Below are positions 3,130-13,997 of a stretch of DNA of 32,000 nt, one piece after another; the first letter of the stretch is position 1; each line of letters opens with the position of its first letter. The notes below the pieces were generated by a model, which worked only from the letters and a program-made list of their open reading frames with translations, was not told where the DNA came from and searched no databases. Location of the stretch: NCBI RefSeq assembly GCF_004365815.1, contig NZ_SODD01000011.1, positions 27,694 to 59,693 on the forward strand, read 5' to 3'. The stretch comes from Breznakia blatticola. GTDB lineage: Bacteria; Bacillota_I; Bacilli_A; Erysipelotrichales; Erysipelotrichaceae. The position numbers were made by a program, and so were the translations under genes.

Positions 3130-4089
3130 TTACACCTCCATTTCATATAAAAATTCATCCATCAATAAAGCGATATTTACCCCTTTACGATTTTTATCTT
3201 TCATTTGATTGCATACAACCATGAACTTTGTTGCTAATAAATCATCGATAGCATCCAATAATTGATCATAACTTGTAATCCCTGTATGTTGTTGCATCAA
3301 CTTATCCTTACCTAAACTCACTAACATTTCAAACATATATTTTGCGACTAAGCGAACATCACGTTTCCCTTTAGCGAACCCTTGTTGGATGAGTACGTTA
3401 ACATCACGATCCCGATTGCTTATTTTTTTCACAAACGTTTCAAATAGATAACGTGCATGCTGATACTCATCACTTTCTTCAATCGCAATAATGTTGGATA
3501 AATCCACTTGCATGTGGGAAAGTAAATATGCATCATACGCATCCATTTCTTCTTTTAATTGATCAAACACCGTTCCATCTTTTTGCTTATGAAAATGTAT
3601 CATTTGGCATCTTGATTTAATTGTATCTAGCAATTGATCTGGATGCTCAACTAATAAAATTGCCATAACTGGACTGGTCGGTTCTTCCAAAAATGTCAGC
3701 AAACTATTTAATGCACTTGGTGTTGTGTTTTCTGCATGATCAATAATATAGATCTTCATTCCTACACTTTCCAAATTGGTTTTAGCAAATTCTTCTTTTA
3801 GTTTTATCACATCATCTTTTTTGATCGATGTTGTAGTTCCATCTAAATAAATAAAATCTGCATAGTTGTGGTGCATGATTCTTTGACAAGTATCACATGT
3901 CTCATCAGCAAACCCCACACTCTGACAAACCAAACTTTGTGCAAGTAACATCGCGGTTTCTTTTTTTGGTGTATTTTGATCTCCAACAAACATATATGCA
4001 TGTGCCAAACGATCATTTAATAATGCATTTTCAAGCACTTGATATACTCTTGGTTGTTCGCGTTTTAAACGTTCTTTAAACATGATCAA
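3130..4089 (-). CDS. holB: DNA polymerase III subunit delta'
   Basis: The N-terminus RLAHAYMFVGDQNTPKKETAMLLAQSLVC with a CxxC zinc module (CDTCQRIMHHNYADF) is typical of HolB. It overlaps the tmk stop by 14 nt. Confidence 0.85.
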   Translation of the reverse strand: MIMFKERLKREQPRVYQVLENALLNDRLAHAYMFVGDQNTPKKETAMLLAQSLVCQSVGFADETCDTCQRIMHHNYADFIYLDGTTTSIKKDDVIKLKEEFAKTNLESVGMKIYIIDHAENTTPSALNSLLTFLEEPTSPVMAILLVEHPDQLLDTIKSRCQMIHFHKQKDGTVFDQLKEEMDAYDAYLLSHMQVDLSNIIAIEESDEYQHARYLFETFVKKISNRDRDVNVLIQQGFAKGKRDVRLVAKYMFEMLVSLGKDKLMQQHTGITSYDQLLDAIDDLLATKFMVVCNQMKDKNRKGVNIALLMDEFLYEMEV

Positions 4090-4705
4090 TTACTTCTTTC
4101 ACCTTTCGATATGTATCTGCATATACAGCTTCAACATTTTGATTTGCATCAATGACAGTAATTCGTTTTGGATACAATTTAGCGACTTCATCATACCCCT
4201 TTGCAACTAGGTAATGAAAACTTTCACTTTCTTGATCCAAGCGATCTAAGTGTTTTCTTGATGCAATTCGTTGCAATCCATTTTCAGGATCCACTTTCAA
4301 TAATAAGGTTGCATCAGGCATTGTATCTGCAATTGCAAATTGATTCATTTGATAGATTTCTTCAATCCCAAGACCTCTAGCTACCCCTTGGTATGCTAAT
4401 GACGAATCAATAAAACGATCACATAACACAATCATTCCAGCTTCTAGTGCAGGAATCACTTTTTCAACTAAATGTTGACGACGTGCAGCAGCATAAAGTA
4501 ATGCTTCTGTTCGCGCATCCATTGCAGTATGTTCAGGATCAAGAATTAATTCTCGAATTTTTTCAGCAATCTCAATCCCACCAGGTTCTCTGGTTTGAAT
4601 CACATCGTATCCTTCTTCAATTAACTGCTCATATATTTTTGTAGAAATCGTTGTTTTTCCACAACCTTCATTTCCTTCAAATGTTATAAATGTACCTTTT
4701 TGCAT
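4076..4705 (-). CDS. tmk: dTMP (thymidylate) kinase
   Basis: P-loop FITFEGNEGCGKTT plus DRFIDSSLAYQG. Start trimmed to the ATG at 4705 (MQKGTFITFEG), which follows a GAGGT SD. The longer listed ORF (to 4867) adds 54 non-homologous residues and overlaps the divergent gene. Confidence 0.9.
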   Translation of the reverse strand: MQKGTFITFEGNEGCGKTTISTKIYEQLIEEGYDVIQTREPGGIEIAEKIRELILDPEHTAMDARTEALLYAAARRQHLVEKVIPALEAGMIVLCDRFIDSSLAYQGVARGLGIEEIYQMNQFAIADTMPDATLLLKVDPENGLQRIASRKHLDRLDQESESFHYLVAKGYDEVAKLYPKRITVIDANQNVEAVYADTYRKVKEVIDHV

Positions 4706-4837
4706 ACATACCTCACGTTCACTGATTATTATACCATTTTTCTTTCTGCTTTTACGTATTAAAGCGTAAAGATACATTATGATAGTTGAGAGTTGAAATC
4801 TTTGTGCTAAAATAATACCTATGAATGGAGAGTACTT

Positions 4838-5665
4838 ATGAACTATATCGCAGATTTCCATATTCATTCGCTGTTTTCGAATGATTCTGAAGAACGCTTA
4901 GAAAATATTATTGAACAAGCGAAAGCTAAAGGTGTTAAGGAAATATGTTTTACTGAACATGTGGATTATGGAGTAAAATTCGACCATGATGATCCTGAAC
5001 ATCCAAATGTGGATTCAACACAACGTAATGTTGATTACCCTTTATATATGAAAACATTGACACAACTACAACAAGACTACAAAGATGAACTGACGATTCG
5101 TATCGGTTTAGAGTTTGGAATGCAACGTCATCGTATCGATACTTACCAAAAACTATACGATCGTTTAGATTTGGACTTTGTTATTTTATCTTGTCATGAA
5201 ATTGATGATAAAGAGTTTTGGACATATGACTACCAAAAAGGTAAGGATGAAGATGAGATGAGCATGGGATATTATGAAGAACTATATACCCTTGTAAACT
5301 CCTATAAAGATTATTCAATTTTAGGTCACTTAGACCACTTAGAACGCTATATTCCAAATCATTATCCCTTTGAAAAAAGCAAAGACATTATTACAAAAAT
5401 ATTAAAAATTGTTATTGCTGATGGAAAAGGAATTGAAGTCAATACTTCAAGTTTTGCCTATAAATTGCCTGATTTAACACCAGCACGTGAAATTCTTGAA
5501 CTATATTATGAATTAGGAGGAACTATTATTACACTTGGCTCTGATGCACATACTGCAAATCGAGTAGCGGATCACTTTGAAGAAGTAGCTACTATTTTAA
5601 AAGAAATTGGCTTTAGTCAATATTGTACATTTGAAAAAATGAAACCAATCTTCCATGCATTATAA
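4838..5665 (+). CDS. PHP-domain phosphoesterase, histidinol-phosphatase (HisJ) family
   Basis: N-terminal DFHIHSLFSND metal-binding motif, later HLDH and GSDAH motifs. GGAGAG SD. There are no other his genes nearby, so the substrate is uncertain. Confidence 0.7.
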   Translation: MNYIADFHIHSLFSNDSEERLENIIEQAKAKGVKEICFTEHVDYGVKFDHDDPEHPNVDSTQRNVDYPLYMKTLTQLQQDYKDELTIRIGLEFGMQRHRIDTYQKLYDRLDLDFVILSCHEIDDKEFWTYDYQKGKDEDEMSMGYYEELYTLVNSYKDYSILGHLDHLERYIPNHYPFEKSKDIITKILKIVIADGKGIEVNTSSFAYKLPDLTPAREILELYYELGGTIITLGSDAHTANRVADHFEEVATILKEIGFSQYCTFEKMKPIFHAL

Positions 5666-5697
5666 AACGAGAGATATTTAATGTCCCTCGTTTTTTT
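5665..5697. terminator. Bidirectional terminator between convergent genes
   Basis: AAAACGAGAG ... CCCTCGTTTTTTT hairpin with one mismatch and an 11-nt loop. T-run on the plus strand, UUUUAUAAU on the minus strand. Confidence 0.6.
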
Positions 5698-6745
5698 ATC
5701 GTCTTAACATTTCTGATACTACTAAACCAACGGTTTTCATAATTGCATCACGTTTTTCTTTTTCGACTTTTGTTAGTGAACGTAGTAACATAATTGATGT
5801 TTGTGGCCATGAGTCTGTTAATTGTGCTACATCAGTTATTTGATTATCCTCAAGTATTTCACTAAGACTTATTATAAATGTTTCACGTTCTTGATGTGTC
5901 AAACTAAGTAGAGCATCTCTTGCCTTTCGATTGATTTGATAGAAACGATTATCCAGTTGATCAAGATATATAAAGTCAGCATCCTCTATCATCCATGTAT
6001 ATAAATTATGTTGCAATAACCATCTCTCATTACTTTTCACTATGCGATAGTTCTCTTCATTTTCAAAAAACAAACCAAAAAATGTTGCTTGTGTAACAAA
6101 CTTATAATAGCGATTTTGAATAGGTTCAAGTGATTCAATACTTTGTAAAGCTGGTCCATCAAAATTATAGATCGCTTGAATTTTTCGTTGTACTTTTTTA
6201 TTTGCATGTAACGATGCATAGGTGGCAATACTTCCACCTTTCGAATGTCCAATCACAATTGCTTTTTTAAATGGATATTTAAGCATTTGTTCAAGATAAA
6301 GTACACCATCTTGTTGCGCAGGAACAGCTGGATACAATAACATATGTAAATCTTCTTTCCACCCTAATATGGAGGTGTCTGTTCCTTCAAATACAATGTA
6401 ATACATTTGTTTATAAGAAAACGTTAGTGCATGAAACTGTTCACACGTTTCTTCCTTGATAATTTTAGTTTCATTAATCAGTTGTATATTTTGATATCGC
6501 TTTGCATGAGCAAGTGCAAGTAGTAACCGTCGATTATCTTTCCCACTTAAATACCCTGCTTCTACTTCTTGTAAATCTAATAGATGCGCAATTTGTTTTA
6601 GCTTTGGTTTCTTATATACATCGCGTAATTCTTTATACTCAATATAACTGAGTTGAGCTAAAATTAGTGCATCAACATGCGTAAAAGGGAGTTCATTCAA
6701 ACTCCTGTTTTGATATTTTTGGATGTATCGAAAAATATCGGACAT
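5696..6745 (-). CDS. Mbeg1-like (DUF2974) alpha/beta-hydrolase family protein
   Basis: N-terminal FRYIQKY...FTHVDALILAQLSY and a lipase-type nucleophile elbow VIGHSKGGSIA, which is the typical DUF2974 layout. Confidence 0.7.
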   Translation of the reverse strand: MSDIFRYIQKYQNRSLNELPFTHVDALILAQLSYIEYKELRDVYKKPKLKQIAHLLDLQEVEAGYLSGKDNRRLLLALAHAKRYQNIQLINETKIIKEETCEQFHALTFSYKQMYYIVFEGTDTSILGWKEDLHMLLYPAVPAQQDGVLYLEQMLKYPFKKAIVIGHSKGGSIATYASLHANKKVQRKIQAIYNFDGPALQSIESLEPIQNRYYKFVTQATFFGLFFENEENYRIVKSNERWLLQHNLYTWMIEDADFIYLDQLDNRFYQINRKARDALLSLTHQERETFIISLSEILEDNQITDVAQLTDSWPQTSIMLLRSLTKVEKEKRDAIMKTVGLVVSEMLRR

Positions 6746-6766
6746 TTGATCAACTCCCTTTGTACA

Positions 6767-7735
6767 TTATACTTCTTGAATAACTGGTAATGCTGTTTCA
6801 GTGAACACTTTCTTTAATGATTCACATGACTTATCAAATTTTCCTTGGTCTACTTCATTTAGTGGTAATTTAATCACTTCTTTTACCCCTTTCCGACATA
6901 TAATTGCCGGTACACCAATGTATAGTCCTTTTTGACCATACTCTCCATTTTGATATGCACTTACTGGAATTACAATATCTTCATTATTTAAAATTGCGAG
7001 TACAATCTTATTTAATGATAAACCAATTCCATAGTTTGTGACACCTTTTAACTCGATAACTTCATATGCAGCATCACGTACTTCTTTATAAATATCTAAT
7101 AAATCGTTGAAGTCTTTTCCTTTTTCATCGATATAGTCAAGTAAGCTTTTGGCACCTACATAACAGTTTGTCCATGATACGAAACTTGAATCTCCATGTT
7201 CTCCTAAGATATATGCGTGAATACTTCTTGGGTTAATTCCCAAGTAATCACTCATTAAGAAACGTAAACGGGCAGAGTCAAGTGATGTTCCAGAACCAAA
7301 TACTTGGTTATGTGGAAGTCCAGTCACTTCTTGGGCAACACATGTTAATACATCTACTGGATTACTTGCGATAACAAGCACCCCATTAAAGCCACTTGCT
7401 TTGATTTCCTCACAAATTTCTTTCATAATTCGTGTGTTGATTGCAGTTAGCTCTAAACGTGATTGTCCAGGTTTTTGGTTTGCTCCTGCAGTTACCACAA
7501 TGATATTGGCATCCTTACACTCTTCATATCCACCTGACTTAATAACCATCTTTGAATTTGGAGCATATGGAAGCCCATGACTTAAGTCCATTGCTTCTCC
7601 TTTTGCTTTTCCTTCATTGACATCGATAAGCACAAGTTCATCAATACCATTCGCCATTAATAATGTATACGCCATACTCATTCCAACAGATCCTGTTCCT
7701 ACAAGTACAACTTTTCGATCTTTGATTGTTCTCAT
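6767..7735 (-). CDS. ldh: L-lactate dehydrogenase
   Basis: Rossmann motif KVVLVGTGSVGMSMAY, the substrate/catalytic region GEHGDS, and length 322 aa. AGGAGAAGGA SD. Confidence 0.9.
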   Translation of the reverse strand: MRTIKDRKVVLVGTGSVGMSMAYTLLMANGIDELVLIDVNEGKAKGEAMDLSHGLPYAPNSKMVIKSGGYEECKDANIIVVTAGANQKPGQSRLELTAINTRIMKEICEEIKASGFNGVLVIASNPVDVLTCVAQEVTGLPHNQVFGSGTSLDSARLRFLMSDYLGINPRSIHAYILGEHGDSSFVSWTNCYVGAKSLLDYIDEKGKDFNDLLDIYKEVRDAAYEVIELKGVTNYGIGLSLNKIVLAILNNEDIVIPVSAYQNGEYGQKGLYIGVPAIICRKGVKEVIKLPLNEVDQGKFDKSCESLKKVFTETALPVIQEV

Positions 7736-7820
7736 AATATCCTTCTCCTGTTCTTTACTTTATTGTACATGCTTCCTATCATTTCTACCAATGTTATGAA
7801 TTATCCTTTTTATTCCACTT

Positions 7821-7865
7821 AAAAAAATGAACCAGTTGAAGAATCTACATTTCCAACTAGTTCAT
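7821..7865 (-). terminator. Strong rho-independent terminator closing the pilus operon
   Basis: Minus-strand RNA AUGAACUAGUUGG-(loop)-UUCAACUGGUUCAU forms a 13-bp stem including 2 G-U pairs. It is followed by UUUUUUU (plus-strand A7 at 7821-7827). Confidence 0.75.
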
Positions 7866-7873
7866 CTATTAAT

Positions 7874-8572
7874 TTATGTAAGATTTTGTTTTTCTCTTTT
7901 TCTTGATTTATAGAGAACAAGTATTACGATAGCTGAAATGAGAATACAAGCTATGTAGTCTTTAGTTCGAGTTACATCTCCTGTATCAGGTTGTTTTCCA
8001 TCTCCATCAGAATATTGTTCATTACTTTTTTTGCCATCATTTTTATCATCAGTAGTATCATCTATTACAGTCTTTTTATATGTATTCACAAATTCTAATT
8101 TTTCAGGTTTTTCACCACTTCCATTATCTCCAATAATTTCAGCAATTAAATCTCCATCACGGTCCCATTTAATATATACGGTGAGTGTATATACTTTGGT
8201 ATCATATGTAAAATTCTTTAAGTCATCCATGTGAATTTGGTACAGTGAATATTTGTAAACACCAACATTTTCATATCGAATTACTCCGATATTCTTTTCC
8301 ATGTTACCTGTTAAGGAAAAGGTATAAGTTGATCCATCTTTACCATCAGGCAATGGAGCATTTTCACTTAATGCTTCCAGACAGTAATCAAAACTAAAAT
8401 CTTCAACATTTTTTGTAGTTTCTGTAGTTACGACTTGTCGTAACGGTAGAATAATCGAAACTTCTTTATTTGCGGCATACACATGCGTATTTTCTATCGT
8501 GTGGATTGCAGCAACAAAAAGCAACAAACAACATATAGAAAATTTAATCCATTTTTTTGTTACCTTCTGCAT
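7874..8572 (-). CDS. Small (ancillary/basal-type) pilin with one pilin isopeptide-linkage-type Ig domain and a C-terminal sorting signal
   Basis: Signal peptide (…THVYA/ANK). The domain pattern FSFDY..APLPDG...GVYKYSLYQI...YDTKVYTLTVYI...EFVNTY is typical of streptococcal-type pilin domains. C-terminus is QPDTG, then a TM helix, then KSRKREK. It is the last gene of the sortase operon. Confidence 0.7.
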   Translation of the reverse strand: MQKVTKKWIKFSICCLLLFVAAIHTIENTHVYAANKEVSIILPLRQVVTTETTKNVEDFSFDYCLEALSENAPLPDGKDGSTYTFSLTGNMEKNIGVIRYENVGVYKYSLYQIHMDDLKNFTYDTKVYTLTVYIKWDRDGDLIAEIIGDNGSGEKPEKLEFVNTYKKTVIDDTTDDKNDGKKSNEQYSDGDGKQPDTGDVTRTKDYIACILISAIVILVLYKSRKREKQNLT

Positions 8573-9533
8573 CCTCTATCCTTTCCGCTTCTTCTTGATC
8601 ATTTCTTCTTTTTCTACGTAACCATAAATACAATAATAAAAGTAATAGTAATAAAAGAATCAAAATCACAAATATACTAATTCCAAATAAACTGCTATTT
8701 GAAAAAGACGAATCATTATTCATCTCACTTATTTTATTGTCTGAGAATGAGTCTTTAAATATTTCATCCCCCAGTCGACCAACTAAAATATATCGTCCGT
8801 TTGTTGCATCGCTTGCACAAGTACTCAACAAGAGAATTCGATCACTTGTACTAACTTTAATATCTCGCGAATATGTTGAGATAGAAAGAAGATACGAAAG
8901 GTATTCTTCTTGTTGTTTTTTGTCTTTAATATCTGGATTATATAATCTAAGATCATATGCATCTGCTTCCACATACGCAAAAAACTCAATACCATAATCT
9001 TTACCACGAACAAATAAATTCCCATACTTATAAGTATCAAAAACTTTTTTATCCTGAAATTTATCTAGGTTTCCAAACATCGCATTTTTTTCAACATGAT
9101 GTCCATAGATAATACTATTGAAATCTGAAAAGTCTGGATTGTTGTTATAATCTAGATACAAACTTCCTGCTAGTGAAAAATCACCTTTTGCATTTATATT
9201 TAAATACTTCGAGTTATCTTTTGCTTGTGTAACAGGATAATCAACTTGAGTCCCATATACATTTAACCAAGCAATGACTTCATCATTTATTTCTTGAAGT
9301 TCTTCAAATGACGTCGTATCTTCACTTGTTGGTTTATATGCTTCATAATGGGTTGCACCTGCTTCTCCTACAACTTGGTTGTTATCCCATATGGAATAAC
9401 AACCAAATATCATAAGTAAGAGAAAAATGAACATTACTACATAATCAACTATTGTGCTAAAACCACGAATAATTTTAATTTGTCGTTCTTTTTTATCATC
9501 AATGAAAGCTTCTTTTTTATTTACATCTTTCAT
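8544..9533 (-). CDS. Class B sortase (pilin polymerase type)
   Basis: AWLNVYGTQVDYPVTQAKDNSKYL, SIIYGHHV (His), LLLSTCAS (Cys239) and GRYILVGR (Arg) match the class B sortase signature. There is an N-terminal TM helix plus an extra C-terminal TM helix with 9 consecutive Leu. Confidence 0.85.
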   Translation of the reverse strand: MKDVNKKEAFIDDKKERQIKIIRGFSTIVDYVVMFIFLLLMIFGCYSIWDNNQVVGEAGATHYEAYKPTSEDTTSFEELQEINDEVIAWLNVYGTQVDYPVTQAKDNSKYLNINAKGDFSLAGSLYLDYNNNPDFSDFNSIIYGHHVEKNAMFGNLDKFQDKKVFDTYKYGNLFVRGKDYGIEFFAYVEADAYDLRLYNPDIKDKKQQEEYLSYLLSISTYSRDIKVSTSDRILLLSTCASDATNGRYILVGRLGDEIFKDSFSDNKISEMNNDSSFSNSSLFGISIFVILILLLLLLLLLYLWLRRKRRNDQEEAERIEDAEGNKKMD

Positions 9534-9555: not shown

Positions 9556-10755
9556 TTAACGTACTGCGTTACGCTTTCTGTTTACTGCATAGTATCCAAA
9601 TCCTGCTGCACCAACAACGATTAGGATAATAAATGGTAAGTTATCTAATAAAATACCAGTGATACTTGTTGAATCAAATGTATTCGTAACTGCAACACTA
9701 TTTTCCTTTTCTCCTAATAGTGTGCTATATTCTGTATCTTTGTCTGCACGGATAATTAAACTATCCCCTTTATCGTAACCTTCTAATTTAACTTCTGCAC
9801 CATTTGTTTTCAGTACAGCTGAAGGCTTGTATGATGTTGAAGCAGTTTCAACTCCATCCATAGTTGTACCTGTAGGTAAATTCTCAACTACAACAGTTTC
9901 TCCATGTTTTAGCTTTACTTTAATTTCTGCCTTTTTGTTTGCTCCTGCTAGTGTAAATTGTCCTGATTTCCCACTTACATCACCATCTTTATCAACAACT
10001 TTGTAATCATATGTTTGTGATTCTGTATGTAATGATGAAGACTTGAAATTAAGTGTGAAATCAAATTCTTGCGTTAAATCTGCTAAATCTCCTGTTGTTG
10101 TTTTGCTCAAAGTGAATGATTCTGTTGGAATTGCACTTCCTGCAATTTTTCTATATACTCCAGAAAATGGAATTGTTGCTCCTGCAGTACCACCATCAAT
10201 TTTATCTGCATCTACAATATTTCCATCTACAACTTTCGTGCTATATACTGCAACACCTTGTAACTTCAATCCACCATTATCGAAATCATTAACAACATAA
10301 ACGTGCATACGATAAACTTCTGGTGCATCTGTTATTGAAGCAGTACCCGGCACAGATGGCGTTTGTTCAGTAATTTGATAAATATATTCACCTGCTTTAC
10401 TAAACCCTCCTGCTCCTACACTAGGAAGTACAATTTCTTCACTTGCAGTTACTGTAACCACATCACCATTTGTTGATTCAGTACTTGCAGAAGTAAATGA
10501 TACAGTTACGTTAGCAATAGCTGGTAAGTTTCCTGTATCTGTTGATTCATTAAAACCCTTTTTTTCGAATGCATACTGAACATTCATAGTAGGTGTTGTA
10601 GTTCCTAAGTCTTTTTTAATTGTCTTGGTAATTGTAATCTGATTAGTGAATAAGTCAGCTGCTAATACTTTTGACGTTCCTCCACTTACGAATAATCCTA
10701 CTGCCATTAAGAATGCCAGTACTCCGTATAATACTCTTGATTTTCTTTTAAACAT
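9556..10755 (-). CDS. Major (backbone) pilin candidate, T-antigen/FctA-like two-domain pilin
   Basis: Signal peptide (…KVLA/ADL). Domain-edge motifs ITITKTI, GEYIYQITE, SFTLSKTT and VAVTNTF resemble Lys/Glu/Asn isopeptide triads. C-terminus is SITG, then a hydrophobic helix, then NRKRNAVR. It sits between the sipA-like and sortase genes. Confidence 0.7.
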   Translation of the reverse strand: MFKRKSRVLYGVLAFLMAVGLFVSGGTSKVLAADLFTNQITITKTIKKDLGTTTPTMNVQYAFEKKGFNESTDTGNLPAIANVTVSFTSASTESTNGDVVTVTASEEIVLPSVGAGGFSKAGEYIYQITEQTPSVPGTASITDAPEVYRMHVYVVNDFDNGGLKLQGVAVYSTKVVDGNIVDADKIDGGTAGATIPFSGVYRKIAGSAIPTESFTLSKTTTGDLADLTQEFDFTLNFKSSSLHTESQTYDYKVVDKDGDVSGKSGQFTLAGANKKAEIKVKLKHGETVVVENLPTGTTMDGVETASTSYKPSAVLKTNGAEVKLEGYDKGDSLIIRADKDTEYSTLLGEKENSVAVTNTFDSTSITGILLDNLPFIILIVVGAAGFGYYAVNRKRNAVR

Positions 10756-10801: not shown

Positions 10802-11344
10802 TTATAGTCCTCTTCGTCTGAAGAAACTAATCGCTTTTCCTTTTATGTTTTTTACATTTACTGGACCATAGACTCGACTATCTAGGGAGTCTTTTCGATC
10901 ATCAGCTAATAGGAATACCTCATCCTCTTTTAAAGTTACTGGGAATTTTATTCCTTCAACATATGGAAGCGTTTCTTTTGTTATTTCTGGTTCATACTGC
11001 AGTGAACCATTAATCATTAATCCGTCTTCAGTGATATCTACTGTATCACCTGCCACGGCAACAACTCTTCGTAACTGTGTTTTACCTTCGTATGTAATAA
11101 CAACGACATCTCTAGCAACATAATGCTTATCAAATCGATAATACAATACTATATCTCCATTTTTTATGGACGGTGACATTGTATTATCTGCAGTTCGTTG
11201 AATTCCAAATACAAAATTAAACAATACAACAAATATTAAAATTACAACTAATATTTTTGTTAACAGTCGAAGCAGTTCGCTTTTTACCGTTGGTGGATGT
11301 TTTGGTGGTCTTTGTTTTGCCACTTTCTTTTTTTCATCCATCAA
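10802..11344 (-). CDS. Type I signal peptidase homologue with substituted catalytic dyad (SipA/LepA-like pilus assembly factor candidate)
   Basis: S26 fold motifs are all present in order: ADNTMSPSIKNGD, LRRVVAVAGDTV, LLADDRKDSLDSR. The Ser position is Thr55 (ACA, 11180-11182) and the Lys position is Arg92 (CGA, 11069-11071). ATGA start/stop overlap with the upstream adhesin gene. Confidence 0.75.
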   Translation of the reverse strand: MMDEKKKVAKQRPPKHPPTVKSELLRLLTKILVVILIFVVLFNFVFGIQRTADNTMSPSIKNGDIVLYYRFDKHYVARDVVVITYEGKTQLRRVVAVAGDTVDITEDGLMINGSLQYEPEITKETLPYVEGIKFPVTLKEDEVFLLADDRKDSLDSRVYGPVNVKNIKGKAISFFRRRGL

Positions 11345-13884
11345 TGATACCTAACTTTCTTACGTATAGAATAAATCATCCATGTAGCAATCATCATTCC
11401 ACCAATACCTAAGAGAAGATACCAAATATTGATATCATCATCAAATGCAGTTGCTGGATACTCCTTGCTTGAAGTTGTAATTGATACACTTGATGTTAGT
11501 TTATTTGCACTTGCAGTATTTTCTAACGTAATTCCTGTTGGAACATCATTCTTACCTTTTAATGTACACTTGAATGATAGTTCCACTTCTTCACCAATAT
11601 CTAAGTATATAGACATTCCATTCATCAACTCAGATACTTTATGTGTTTCATCGGTTGTTACAACATTGTTTTTATTTGTATATTTCATTGTAACAATTGT
11701 ATTTTGTGGATTTTCAATATAAGGCAATAAGTTACTTAATGTATCTTTTACCTTTGTGTTATCCGACAAAGTTGCTCCTGTCTCATTACGAACTAAAATC
11801 TTATAGTATAAGTCCTCTTTTGGTGAAGCATAATTATCACCATTCGTATCGATAACACTTTTATTAATAGAAATAATTGGCGAACCTGCAGCTATTGAAT
11901 CTGTTGCTGTAAATCTATTATCTACAATTACTGTGTTAGTTAATTGTCCATTTAGCTCATCATTTAATTTATTCAAATCAAAATTTCCAGCTCCTAAGGT
12001 TTCTGTTGCTACCAAAGTTACAGTTACTTTCTGTGACTCACCAACCCCCATCCAAAGTTTAAATCCACCTTCATAAATTAGATGTAAACTATTCTTCCAT
12101 ATTGCATCATCTCTATCATCTTCATATGCTACATAAATATTAGGATCACTTTCAAAACTTTTCTGTAAGTCAAAATACTGAGCAGTATTACCTAATATCA
12201 GTTGCAAAGGAACGTCATTAATTCCTATTACTGAATTATTTGTTACAAAGAACTCGAACTTGACTTTATCACCTGGTCGTACGATTTCATCATCGCATAC
12301 ACCATCGCATACCTTTGTCATTTTCTTATCTATGGAAACATCCATTTTTGTATAAGCATCAACTTCAGTATCATTGATACCAGCATACACTGTGTTTTTG
12401 AATCTATCGATATTATCAAATCCCAATGCTTTTAAAGAAGCTTCATCTTTCATTACGACACTGAATTTAACTTCAAACTCATATCCCGATTCTAAATCAA
12501 CACTTAATTCTCCTGACATTAATTTTTTAATTGTAGTTGATGACCTACCAATTTCAGTTGGGTTACCTTCTGATGACGATTTTTTCTTTATTATGGTTAC
12601 CTCTTGATTATCAGGATATACGAAATAATCATAGATTCCTTCTAATGGGTCTTTAATTACCATATTCTCATATGTAGCACCACCATAGTTTGATACAACT
12701 ATCGTATATGTTATCGTATCGTTTGGTTCAGCAAAGTTATTTCCATCTGGTCCATCTGTAACAAATTTTCCAACATATAAGTTTGGAAATTGTAGATCAA
12801 TATTTGCTTGTGCTTCAACTCCACCTACAGTAACTCTATTTTCCATACTCTTTTGGTATCCACCCAAAACAGCTGTAGAAAGTTTTCCACTTCCTTTTGC
12901 GGCATTAGCAGCATCTTCGATACTTCTTAGTTCTACTCTATATTTCATTTTGACTGTAGCACCTGCAGGAATATTATAGCTTCCATAACGTTGTGTAAGT
13001 CCACCCATTGTTTTTTTAACTCCAGGTTGTTCTTGCAGTACATCGTTAACATAAATATCCACTACTTGTTCTTCTTCTGGCTGTTTATAATACTCTACTA
13101 ACACTGGTGAAAATTTACTAAACATATCTAACTCATCAAAAAATAGAATTTCTTTCAAATCTGCACCAGTTTTATTTTCTGCAGAAATTGTATATTCTAA
13201 GGTATCACCAGCCCAACCAGGATGATTTGGATCTCTTGTTTTATTGATTACTGATTTCGTTACCAATAATTGATCTGTTGTGTAATCATTCTTACAAAAT
13301 AGAACATTTCGATATAAATCTCCGATGCGCACTGTACCATTAATACTTGTTGTGGCATTTGGCATGTTTACCTTATGATTAAATCCTGTAACTAATGTTC
13401 CACTTAGTGTTTTACTTGTAGAAGCATCAAACTTCATTTCTATTGTTCCTGTAGTTCTTTCTCCAGATGTACTAGCATTAATTCGCCATTGTCCTACGGT
13501 CACTCCATTACTATCTACAAGATTACTGTACGCTGTATTACTATACAAGTAATTGATATTGTCGCTTACTAAAAAGTCAAATATGACAGAATCTCCTTCT
13601 TGGAAACTACTATTTTGTGTAGTAGCTGTCCAATCTATTGATGCATTGATCATATCTCCATCAAGCATCGCTGCATAGTTTGTCATATTATATCCTTGAC
13701 TCGTTTCTATTATAAATTCATTAATTGTAATTCCAACATTTCCACTTGATAACAATGATATTTCTTCATTTCTTTCAGTTTCTTCTTTAGCTTGAATCGG
13801 TACTTTACTAAGCAAAGAAGCGACCACAATAAAAAAAACCAGGATTAACCAAGTTAAATTCTTTTTGTTTGTTTTCCCTACCAT
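11341..13884 (-). CDS. Large surface adhesin / pilus tip candidate: N-terminal Cna-A-like binding domain plus four DUF11-type repeat domains and a C-terminal anchor
   Basis: Signal peptide. Residues ~45-195 follow a collagen-binding-like pattern (IDWTATT...EGDSVIFDF...LVDSNGVTVGQWRI). Four ~150-aa repeats each contain a DUF11-like core: GDTLEYTISAENKTG, NDTITYTIVVSNYGG, GDKVKFEFFVTNNS, EDLYYKILVRNETG. C-terminus is YPATA...TM...RKKVRYH. Confidence 0.65.
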   Translation of the reverse strand: MVGKTNKKNLTWLILVFFIVVASLLSKVPIQAKEETERNEEISLLSSGNVGITINEFIIETSQGYNMTNYAAMLDGDMINASIDWTATTQNSSFQEGDSVIFDFLVSDNINYLYSNTAYSNLVDSNGVTVGQWRINASTSGERTTGTIEMKFDASTSKTLSGTLVTGFNHKVNMPNATTSINGTVRIGDLYRNVLFCKNDYTTDQLLVTKSVINKTRDPNHPGWAGDTLEYTISAENKTGADLKEILFFDELDMFSKFSPVLVEYYKQPEEEQVVDIYVNDVLQEQPGVKKTMGGLTQRYGSYNIPAGATVKMKYRVELRSIEDAANAAKGSGKLSTAVLGGYQKSMENRVTVGGVEAQANIDLQFPNLYVGKFVTDGPDGNNFAEPNDTITYTIVVSNYGGATYENMVIKDPLEGIYDYFVYPDNQEVTIIKKKSSSEGNPTEIGRSSTTIKKLMSGELSVDLESGYEFEVKFSVVMKDEASLKALGFDNIDRFKNTVYAGINDTEVDAYTKMDVSIDKKMTKVCDGVCDDEIVRPGDKVKFEFFVTNNSVIGINDVPLQLILGNTAQYFDLQKSFESDPNIYVAYEDDRDDAIWKNSLHLIYEGGFKLWMGVGESQKVTVTLVATETLGAGNFDLNKLNDELNGQLTNTVIVDNRFTATDSIAAGSPIISINKSVIDTNGDNYASPKEDLYYKILVRNETGATLSDNTKVKDTLSNLLPYIENPQNTIVTMKYTNKNNVVTTDETHKVSELMNGMSIYLDIGEEVELSFKCTLKGKNDVPTGITLENTASANKLTSSVSITTSSKEYPATAFDDDINIWYLLLGIGGMMIATWMIYSIRKKVRYH

Positions 13885-13968: not shown

Positions 13969-13997
13969 ATTATAATCGTTCACCATAAATACGTCAA
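13969..13997 (-). promoter_or_regulatory. Sigma-A-type promoter of the pilus operon
   Basis: Minus strand reads TTGACG (13997-13992), a 17-nt spacer, then TATAAT (13974-13969). This predicts a 5' UTR of roughly 75-80 nt. Confidence 0.6.

Follow-up and report, generated by a model that had tools for sequence, protein, structure and literature searches.

The pilus operon in the window

The window, that is, the whole 32-kb stretch of DNA analysed here, carries a pilus operon. Its genes lie on the same strand in the order adhesin, sipA, DUF7601 backbone pilin, class B sortase and small FctA-type pilin (Table 1). The GC content of the host DNA is low (33%). The adhesin has a signal peptide, isopeptide-type domains and a C-terminal membrane anchor. 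It has no canonical LPXTG motif, and the only candidate sorting motif before the anchor is YPATA (…SSKEYPATAFDDD…). The C-terminus of the backbone pilin carries STSITGILLDNLPF. In the three pre-pilins of the operon, inspection by eye predicts signal-peptide cleavage at IQA/KEE, VLA/ADL and VYA/ANK. A scan found no terminator-like site inside the operon. Genes for a HAD hydrolase and an L-lactate dehydrogenase flank the operon, and no Mga-family regulator gene adjoins it. Immediately downstream of the lactate dehydrogenase gene is the Mbeg1-like gene, which has the same place in the related locus L002 and appears to be unrelated to the pilus operon.

Table 1. Positions of the genes and sequence features discussed in the text
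Feature	Position	Strand	Basis and remarks
349-aa Mbeg1-like predicted lipase/hydrolase gene	5696..6745	-	PF11187
232-aa small FctA-type pilin, putative base pilin	7874..8572	-	Pfam FctA and TIGR03786; QPDTG sorting motif
329-aa class B sortase	8544..9533	-	TIGR03064 sortase_srtB, 192.7 bits against a cut-off of 153.75
399-aa putative backbone pilin	9556..10755	-	DUF7601 match; sorting signal STSITG-ILLDNLPF
sipA/lepA-like gene	10802..11344	-	180-aa signal-peptidase-I homologue without the Ser-Lys dyad
Box E, ADDRKDSLDSR (residues 147-157)	10874..10906	-	D148, R150, D155, S156 and R157 kept
Arg92 codon CGA, general-base Lys position (box D, QLRRVVAVAGD)	11069..11071	-	Pairwise alignments
Thr55 codon ACA, nucleophile Ser position of signal peptidases (box B, NTMSP)	11180..11182	-	Pairwise alignments
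Asp53 codon	11186..11188	-	Two residues before the nucleophile column
N-terminal membrane anchor of the sipA product, about residues 24-46	11207..11275	-	Hydrophobic stretch LLRLLTKILVVILIFVVLFNFVF
Overlap of adhesin stop (TGA) and sipA start (TTG 11344, ATG 11341)	11341..11344	-	Sequence read
847-aa putative tip adhesin / ancillary pilin	11341..13884	-	TIGR04226 RrgB_K2N_iso_D2 and DUF11 matches
Best promoter-like site upstream of the operon	13969..13997	-	TTGACG-17-TATAAT, 11/12 matches; weak, site count in the region no higher than in shuffled controls

The sipA-like reading frame has two possible starts. The TTG start gives a protein of 180 aa, and the ATG start one codon further in gives 179 aa. 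For P0001, a relative of 179 aa with 98% identity, the gene callers chose the ATG. With this start, the residues in the columns of the catalytic dyad are numbered Thr54 and Arg91; here we use the numbering from the TTG. At the junction with the adhesin gene, the minus-strand sequence is TAT CAT TGA TGG ATG. Thus, the two genes overlap by 1 nt (TGATG) if translation starts at the ATG, or by 4 nt (TTGA) if it starts at the TTG. The neighbouring genes and the junction sequence agree with the preliminary description in that the gene belongs to the pilus operon and overlaps the adhesin gene, but the ATGA overlap given there is incorrect. In the protein, a Lys/Arg/Pro-rich cytoplasmic tail precedes the N-terminal membrane anchor.

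Family assignment of the sipA product

The sipA product matches Pfam Peptidase_S26 (PF10502) with an E value of 3.4e-24 and 86 bits against a cut-off of 22.9. It also matches the NCBIfam model of signal peptidase I, TIGR02227, with 101.4 bits against a cut-off of 47. These two matches bear out the homology to S26 signal peptidases that had been proposed for this reading frame. Among proteins of solved structure, the closest relatives are SipA (4n31, E 5.2e-24) and LepA (4k8w, E 5.7e-22) of S. pyogenes. The nearest relative in a named organism belongs to Erysipelotrichaceae bacterium MTC7 (57% identity).

The AlphaFold model of the sipA product, built with 87 sequences, has a pLDDT of 83.7 and consists of an N-terminal helix followed by a beta domain. 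The helix at residues 20-45 is predicted with a pLDDT of 94-97. The top match of the model in the PDB, determined with Foldseek, is again 4n31 (target TM 0.84-0.88, 41% identity), followed by SpsB (query TM 0.59, 24% identity) and LepB. Type I signal peptidases of the S26A group (E. coli LepB, B. subtilis SipS, S. aureus SpsB) have the same fold, boxes B to E and membrane topology as the window protein. [quoted passage not shown] Judging by its sequence and modelled fold, the sipA product is a member of the SipA/LepA family. All the testable defining features of this family were found: the S26 fold with an N-terminal anchor, greater closeness to SipA than to true peptidases, the absence of the Ser-Lys dyad, and a place in a sortase-dependent pilus operon with a class B sortase and FctA/DUF7601 pilins.

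Residues at the former catalytic positions

We aligned the sipA product pairwise, using HMMER, with three true signal peptidases of solved structure: B. anthracis 4nv4, E. faecalis 4me8 and S. aureus SpsB 4wvh. In all three alignments the catalytic Ser is matched by Thr55 and the catalytic Lys by Arg92. Thus, where type I signal peptidases have the nucleophilic Ser of box B (S-M-x-P), the window protein has Thr, and where they have the general-base Lys of box D (K-R-x-x-G-x-P-G-D), it has Arg. This is the placement of the two residues made in the preliminary description, and the three motifs quoted there (ADNTMSPSI, QLRRVVAVAGD and ADDRKDSLDSR) are all present in the translation. S. pyogenes SipA had been named as a comparator that also lacks the dyad. 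This is correct: in the alignment with 4n31, Thr55 stands opposite Asp48 and Arg92 opposite Gly85, in agreement with the published Asp/Gly at both sites (PMC4049620).

No substitute Ser/Lys dyad was found elsewhere in the protein from the family alignments and the variability of their columns. Ser57 and Lys88 do not form one because both columns are variable: only three of the 135 columns vary more than that of Ser57, and the Lys88 column varies between K, E and Q among relatives. A second S26 homologue was not found in the window. The five residues of box E listed in Table 1 are invariant or nearly so in the alignments of relatives.

Variation of the two columns among relatives

To define the variation, two sets of relatives were used. 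The first set contained the best 120 proteins from a collection of 5.8 billion proteins, and the second contained 150 representatives of 50%-identity clusters, all with E < ~6e-30. Both sets were pooled to give 269 relatives, which were analysed with a neighbour-joining tree and Fitch parsimony. At the general-base column, Arg was found in 116 of the 121 sequences formed by the closest 120 and the query. The counts were R 76, G 24, L 14, A 11 and others for the 150 representatives with the query, and R 189, G 24, L 15, A 11 and others for the 269 pooled relatives; Lys was absent from both. At the nucleophile column we counted S 42, D 31, A 17, G 11, T 10, M 9 and E 1 in the closest 120 with the query, S 51, D 30, G 24, A 14, T 10, N 9 and others in the representatives with the query, and S 93, D 60, G 35, A 31, T 19 and M 11 in the pooled set. 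Ser still leads at this column (35% of the pooled relatives), and at least six residues are tolerated, Thr being one of them.

Parsimony gave 91 changes for the nucleophile column (rank 40 of 135; the median column has 66) and 44 changes for the general-base column (rank 90 of 135), which is thus more conserved than the median. M56, R93, D148, D155, S156 and R157 changed 0 or 1 times each, and 19 columns are invariant across 87 sequences with 45-98% identity to the query. As read from the alignments, the signature in this column variation is that of a scaffold that has been kept and catalytic positions that have been released.

The Thr/Arg pair had been regarded as a distinct solution, and it had been suggested to look for its conservation in a clade. 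On the neighbour-joining tree it turned out that Thr at column 55 has about 16 separate origins, mostly as sister to Ser/Arg sequences, and the all-Thr clade of the query contains only three sequences, namely the query, P0001 and P0002. The pair is thus rejected as the mark of a conserved clade. Nor is it a distinct conserved solution, given these repeated origins, the complete absence of Lys and the fact that Arg is the commonest state of the base column. The Thr/Arg pair is also present in public genomes, for example in Erysipelotrichaceae bacterium MTC7, and judging by the counts it is a common variant of the pilus-linked family. The smallest clade around the query with only Ser or Thr at position 55 has 10 members, 5 with Ser and 5 with Thr; the node directly above it holds a mixture of D, S, A, T and G. 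It is possible that a hydroxyl at position 55 has a role in this small subclade.

Arg92 covaries with an acidic residue at position 53. Asp or Glu is found there in 178 of the 190 sequences that have Arg92 and in 33 of the 79 that lack it. When tree groups are counted, the figures are 42 of 45 and 9 of 23, respectively (approximate Fisher p 3e-6). This covariation suggests an Arg92-Asp53 salt bridge that fills the former active site. Arg92 is probably structural, filling the old lysine pocket and pairing with Asp53. The conservation of its column above the median implies some function for Arg92.

Related loci

The core order of sipA, DUF7601 pilin gene and sortase-position gene recurs in seven related loci (L001, L002 and L005-L009). 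The pairs of residues in their dyad columns are T/R in L001 (Erysipelotrichaceae bacterium MTC7) and L002, S/R in L005 (Enterococcus raffinosus), D/R in L006, M/R in L007 (a metagenomic contig), G/R in L008 and A/R in L009. A gene of the DUF7601 pilin family adjoins sipA in every related locus examined, and most of the loci have a large adhesin gene upstream and a gene for a small FctA-type pilin downstream. The sortase-position genes of L006 and L008 have no Pfam match. The adhesin and sipA genes overlap by 1 or 4 nt in L001, L002, L006, L007 and L008 as well. From this synteny, the genomic role of the gene looks unchanged whatever residue occupies the nucleophile column.

Several other features of these loci were observed. 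The YPATA motif of the adhesin is kept as YPATAYDDD in L002, and the adhesins of the other loci have IPETG, VPTG or VDTG. The backbone pilins beside sipA in the window and in all seven loci have a common sorting signal, x-x-T-G-[ILV]-[LVI]-x-[DN]-N-[LF]-P-[FY], which reaches beyond the cleavage motif. The sortase or SipA could recognise the DNLPF-like element that follows TG. The class B sortases of the window, L001, L002, L005, L006 and L009 have an N-terminal anchor and a C-terminal hydrophobic segment followed by a Lys/Arg-rich tail. The sortase of L007 (240 aa) lacks the C-terminal segment. Genes for Mga-family regulators (PF05043) flank the sipA loci L005 (positions 3667-5190) and L007 (positions 6588-8117).

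Discussion

The sipA product is most probably a non-catalytic, membrane-anchored pilus assembly factor of the SipA/LepA type. The family is conserved in its scaffold, and the two chemical positions have been released or replaced; for this reason we read the protein as a non-catalytic binding protein. Position 55 would have been freed from catalytic constraint, and Arg at position 92 would simply be the usual residue of the family. The preliminary description had left two alternatives, a non-catalytic chaperone and a protein whose Thr/Arg pair confers residual or altered activity. The comparative data favour the first of them and speak against the second, since position 55 drifts and Lys is absent.

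The locus is organised like the FCT loci of S. pyogenes, where sipA lies between the genes of the tip adhesin and the backbone pilin, near a class B sortase gene and a gene for a small pilin of the FctB/FctA type. The order in FCT-2/3/4 is cpa, sipA, fctA, srtC, fctB (PMC7900414), and the order in the window matches it. The SipA/LepA proteins of these loci (4n31, 4k8w) share with the window protein the S26 fold, the N-terminal anchor, about 40% identity and the absence of the dyad, although the residues at the former catalytic positions are different, Asp/Gly in S. pyogenes and Thr/Arg in the window. The sortases also differ: that of the window has a C-terminal membrane segment, and S. pyogenes SrtC1 has been described without a C-terminal transmembrane region (PMC7900414). 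A signal peptidase homologue, three pilins and a class B sortase are also found in the necrotic-enteritis pilus operon of another non-streptococcal Firmicute, Clostridium perfringens VR-10B, which is syntenic with the streptococcal loci; we liken it to the window by operon content (PMC8088525).

SipA of S. pyogenes is essential for pilus polymerisation. It has a LepB-like peptide-binding cleft and shows no peptidase activity on pre-pilins or peptides, and the replacements D61A and D61S at its nucleophile-equivalent residue have no effect (PMC4049620; PMC7900414). The combination of being required for polymerisation and lacking peptidase activity is known only for the homologues of S. pyogenes, S. 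pneumoniae PI-2 and S. agalactiae PI-2b (PMC4049620, PMC7900414). The mechanism proposed for S. pyogenes SipA is the binding or positioning of a pilin or of the sortase; its direct binding to pilins, sorting-signal peptides or sortase was undetected in vitro (PMC7900414). By analogy, the sipA product of the window would be made together with the tip adhesin, the backbone pilin, the class B sortase and the small base pilin, and would be anchored on the outer face of the membrane with its signal-peptidase fold kept. Its peptide-binding groove would be kept as well, and it would cut no peptide bond. As a chaperone or scaffold at the membrane, it would most likely bind or position either the sortase or a pilin precursor and so enable the sortase to polymerise the pilins.

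Four other explanations were weighed against this non-catalytic assembly factor. About 70% of the pilus-linked proteins sampled are of the Arg type, and the Asp/Gly type of S. pyogenes is in the minority. It is conceivable, though in our opinion unlikely, that the Arg-type proteins have a remodelled functional site, made of Arg92, Asp/Glu53 and often Ser/Thr55, and that pilus assembly relies on it, whereas it does not rely on Asp48 of S. pyogenes SipA. With this site they might recognise some specific feature of a pilin precursor, one candidate being the conserved TG-[ILV][LV]x[DN]N[LF]PF sorting signal, or might support a weak non-canonical hydrolytic step.

By an analogy of a different kind, the sipA product might be a decoy or antagonist of the housekeeping signal peptidase, binding the signal anchor of the class B sortase or of a pilin and shielding it from cleavage, so that these proteins would stay in the membrane long enough to allow polymerisation. 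A fold that is kept, with a groove that appears intact and lost catalytic residues, would suit such a protein, and the sortases of these loci do have N-terminal segments that resemble signal anchors. There is also a precedent in Actinomyces oris, where SafA is reported to retain a sortase in the membrane by protecting it from signal peptidase (PMC9282373). However, SafA is unrelated to S26 proteins, an interaction of S. pyogenes SipA with sortase was undetected in vitro (PMC7900414), and the present data do not separate a decoy from a general scaffold. We regard this explanation as purely speculative and quite improbable.

It is very unlikely, though conceivable for the small Ser/Thr subclade, that the protein is an active signal peptidase dedicated to pilins, whose activity, residual or altered, would depend on Thr55 as the nucleophile and Arg92 as the general base. 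Chemically, both replacements are conservative, the remainder of boxes B to E is intact, and only Ser or Thr occurs at position 55 in the nearest 10-sequence clade; however, just outside this clade Asp, Ala, Gly or Met is found at position 55 in loci of the same core order. The column changes more than the median one, and none of the 269 relatives has Lys at position 92. By general chemistry, its high pKa makes Arg a poor general base; a search of the literature gave no usable report of a true signal peptidase in which the Lys had been mutated to Arg. The query keeps Ser153, the counterpart of E. coli Ser278, which positions the catalytic Lys, but most family members have Ala there. S. suis SipF, a signal-peptidase homologue encoded in the sortase-dependent srtF pilus cluster, has been reported to keep both the Ser and the Lys of a true dyad; it differs from the window protein in this respect, and also in that its cluster has a class C sortase and polymerisation does not require SipF (PMC2797073). 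The closest characterised relative is inactive, and mutations of its nucleophile-equivalent residue have no effect (PMC4049620).

The view of the gene as a signal peptidase relic that decays without function is scarcely credible: the dyad is lost and the nucleophile column drifts, but the frame is intact, the invariant columns are numerous, the position and the adhesin overlap are kept in diverse loci including those of named Enterococcus and Erysipelotrichaceae genomes, the AlphaFold model is confident, and the streptococcal homologue is essential for pili (PMC4049620).

The name 'signal peptidase I' is given to public relatives of the window protein in Hespellia stercorisuis, Enterococcus raffinosus and several MAGs, because they pass the cut-off of TIGR02227, and this model does not check the dyad. 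The annotation by this 'equivalog' model is systematically too specific for the dyad-less family. Proteins of this kind pass the model and carry the name, although the catalytic Lys is absent from all 269 relatives sampled, so annotation-based counts of signal peptidases per genome are inflated.

[quoted passage not shown] Our additions to the few streptococcal sequences of Young et al. are modest: the general-base position never holds Lys and most often holds Arg, this Arg being coupled to an acidic residue, and the nucleophile position varies freely. The pattern of variation can be regarded as natural mutagenesis, with free substitution of the nucleophile, an acid-coupled Arg in most sequences at the base position, and an invariant scaffold. 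This pattern supports the non-catalytic model of SipA and points to the residues that should be mutated to find its real binding surface.
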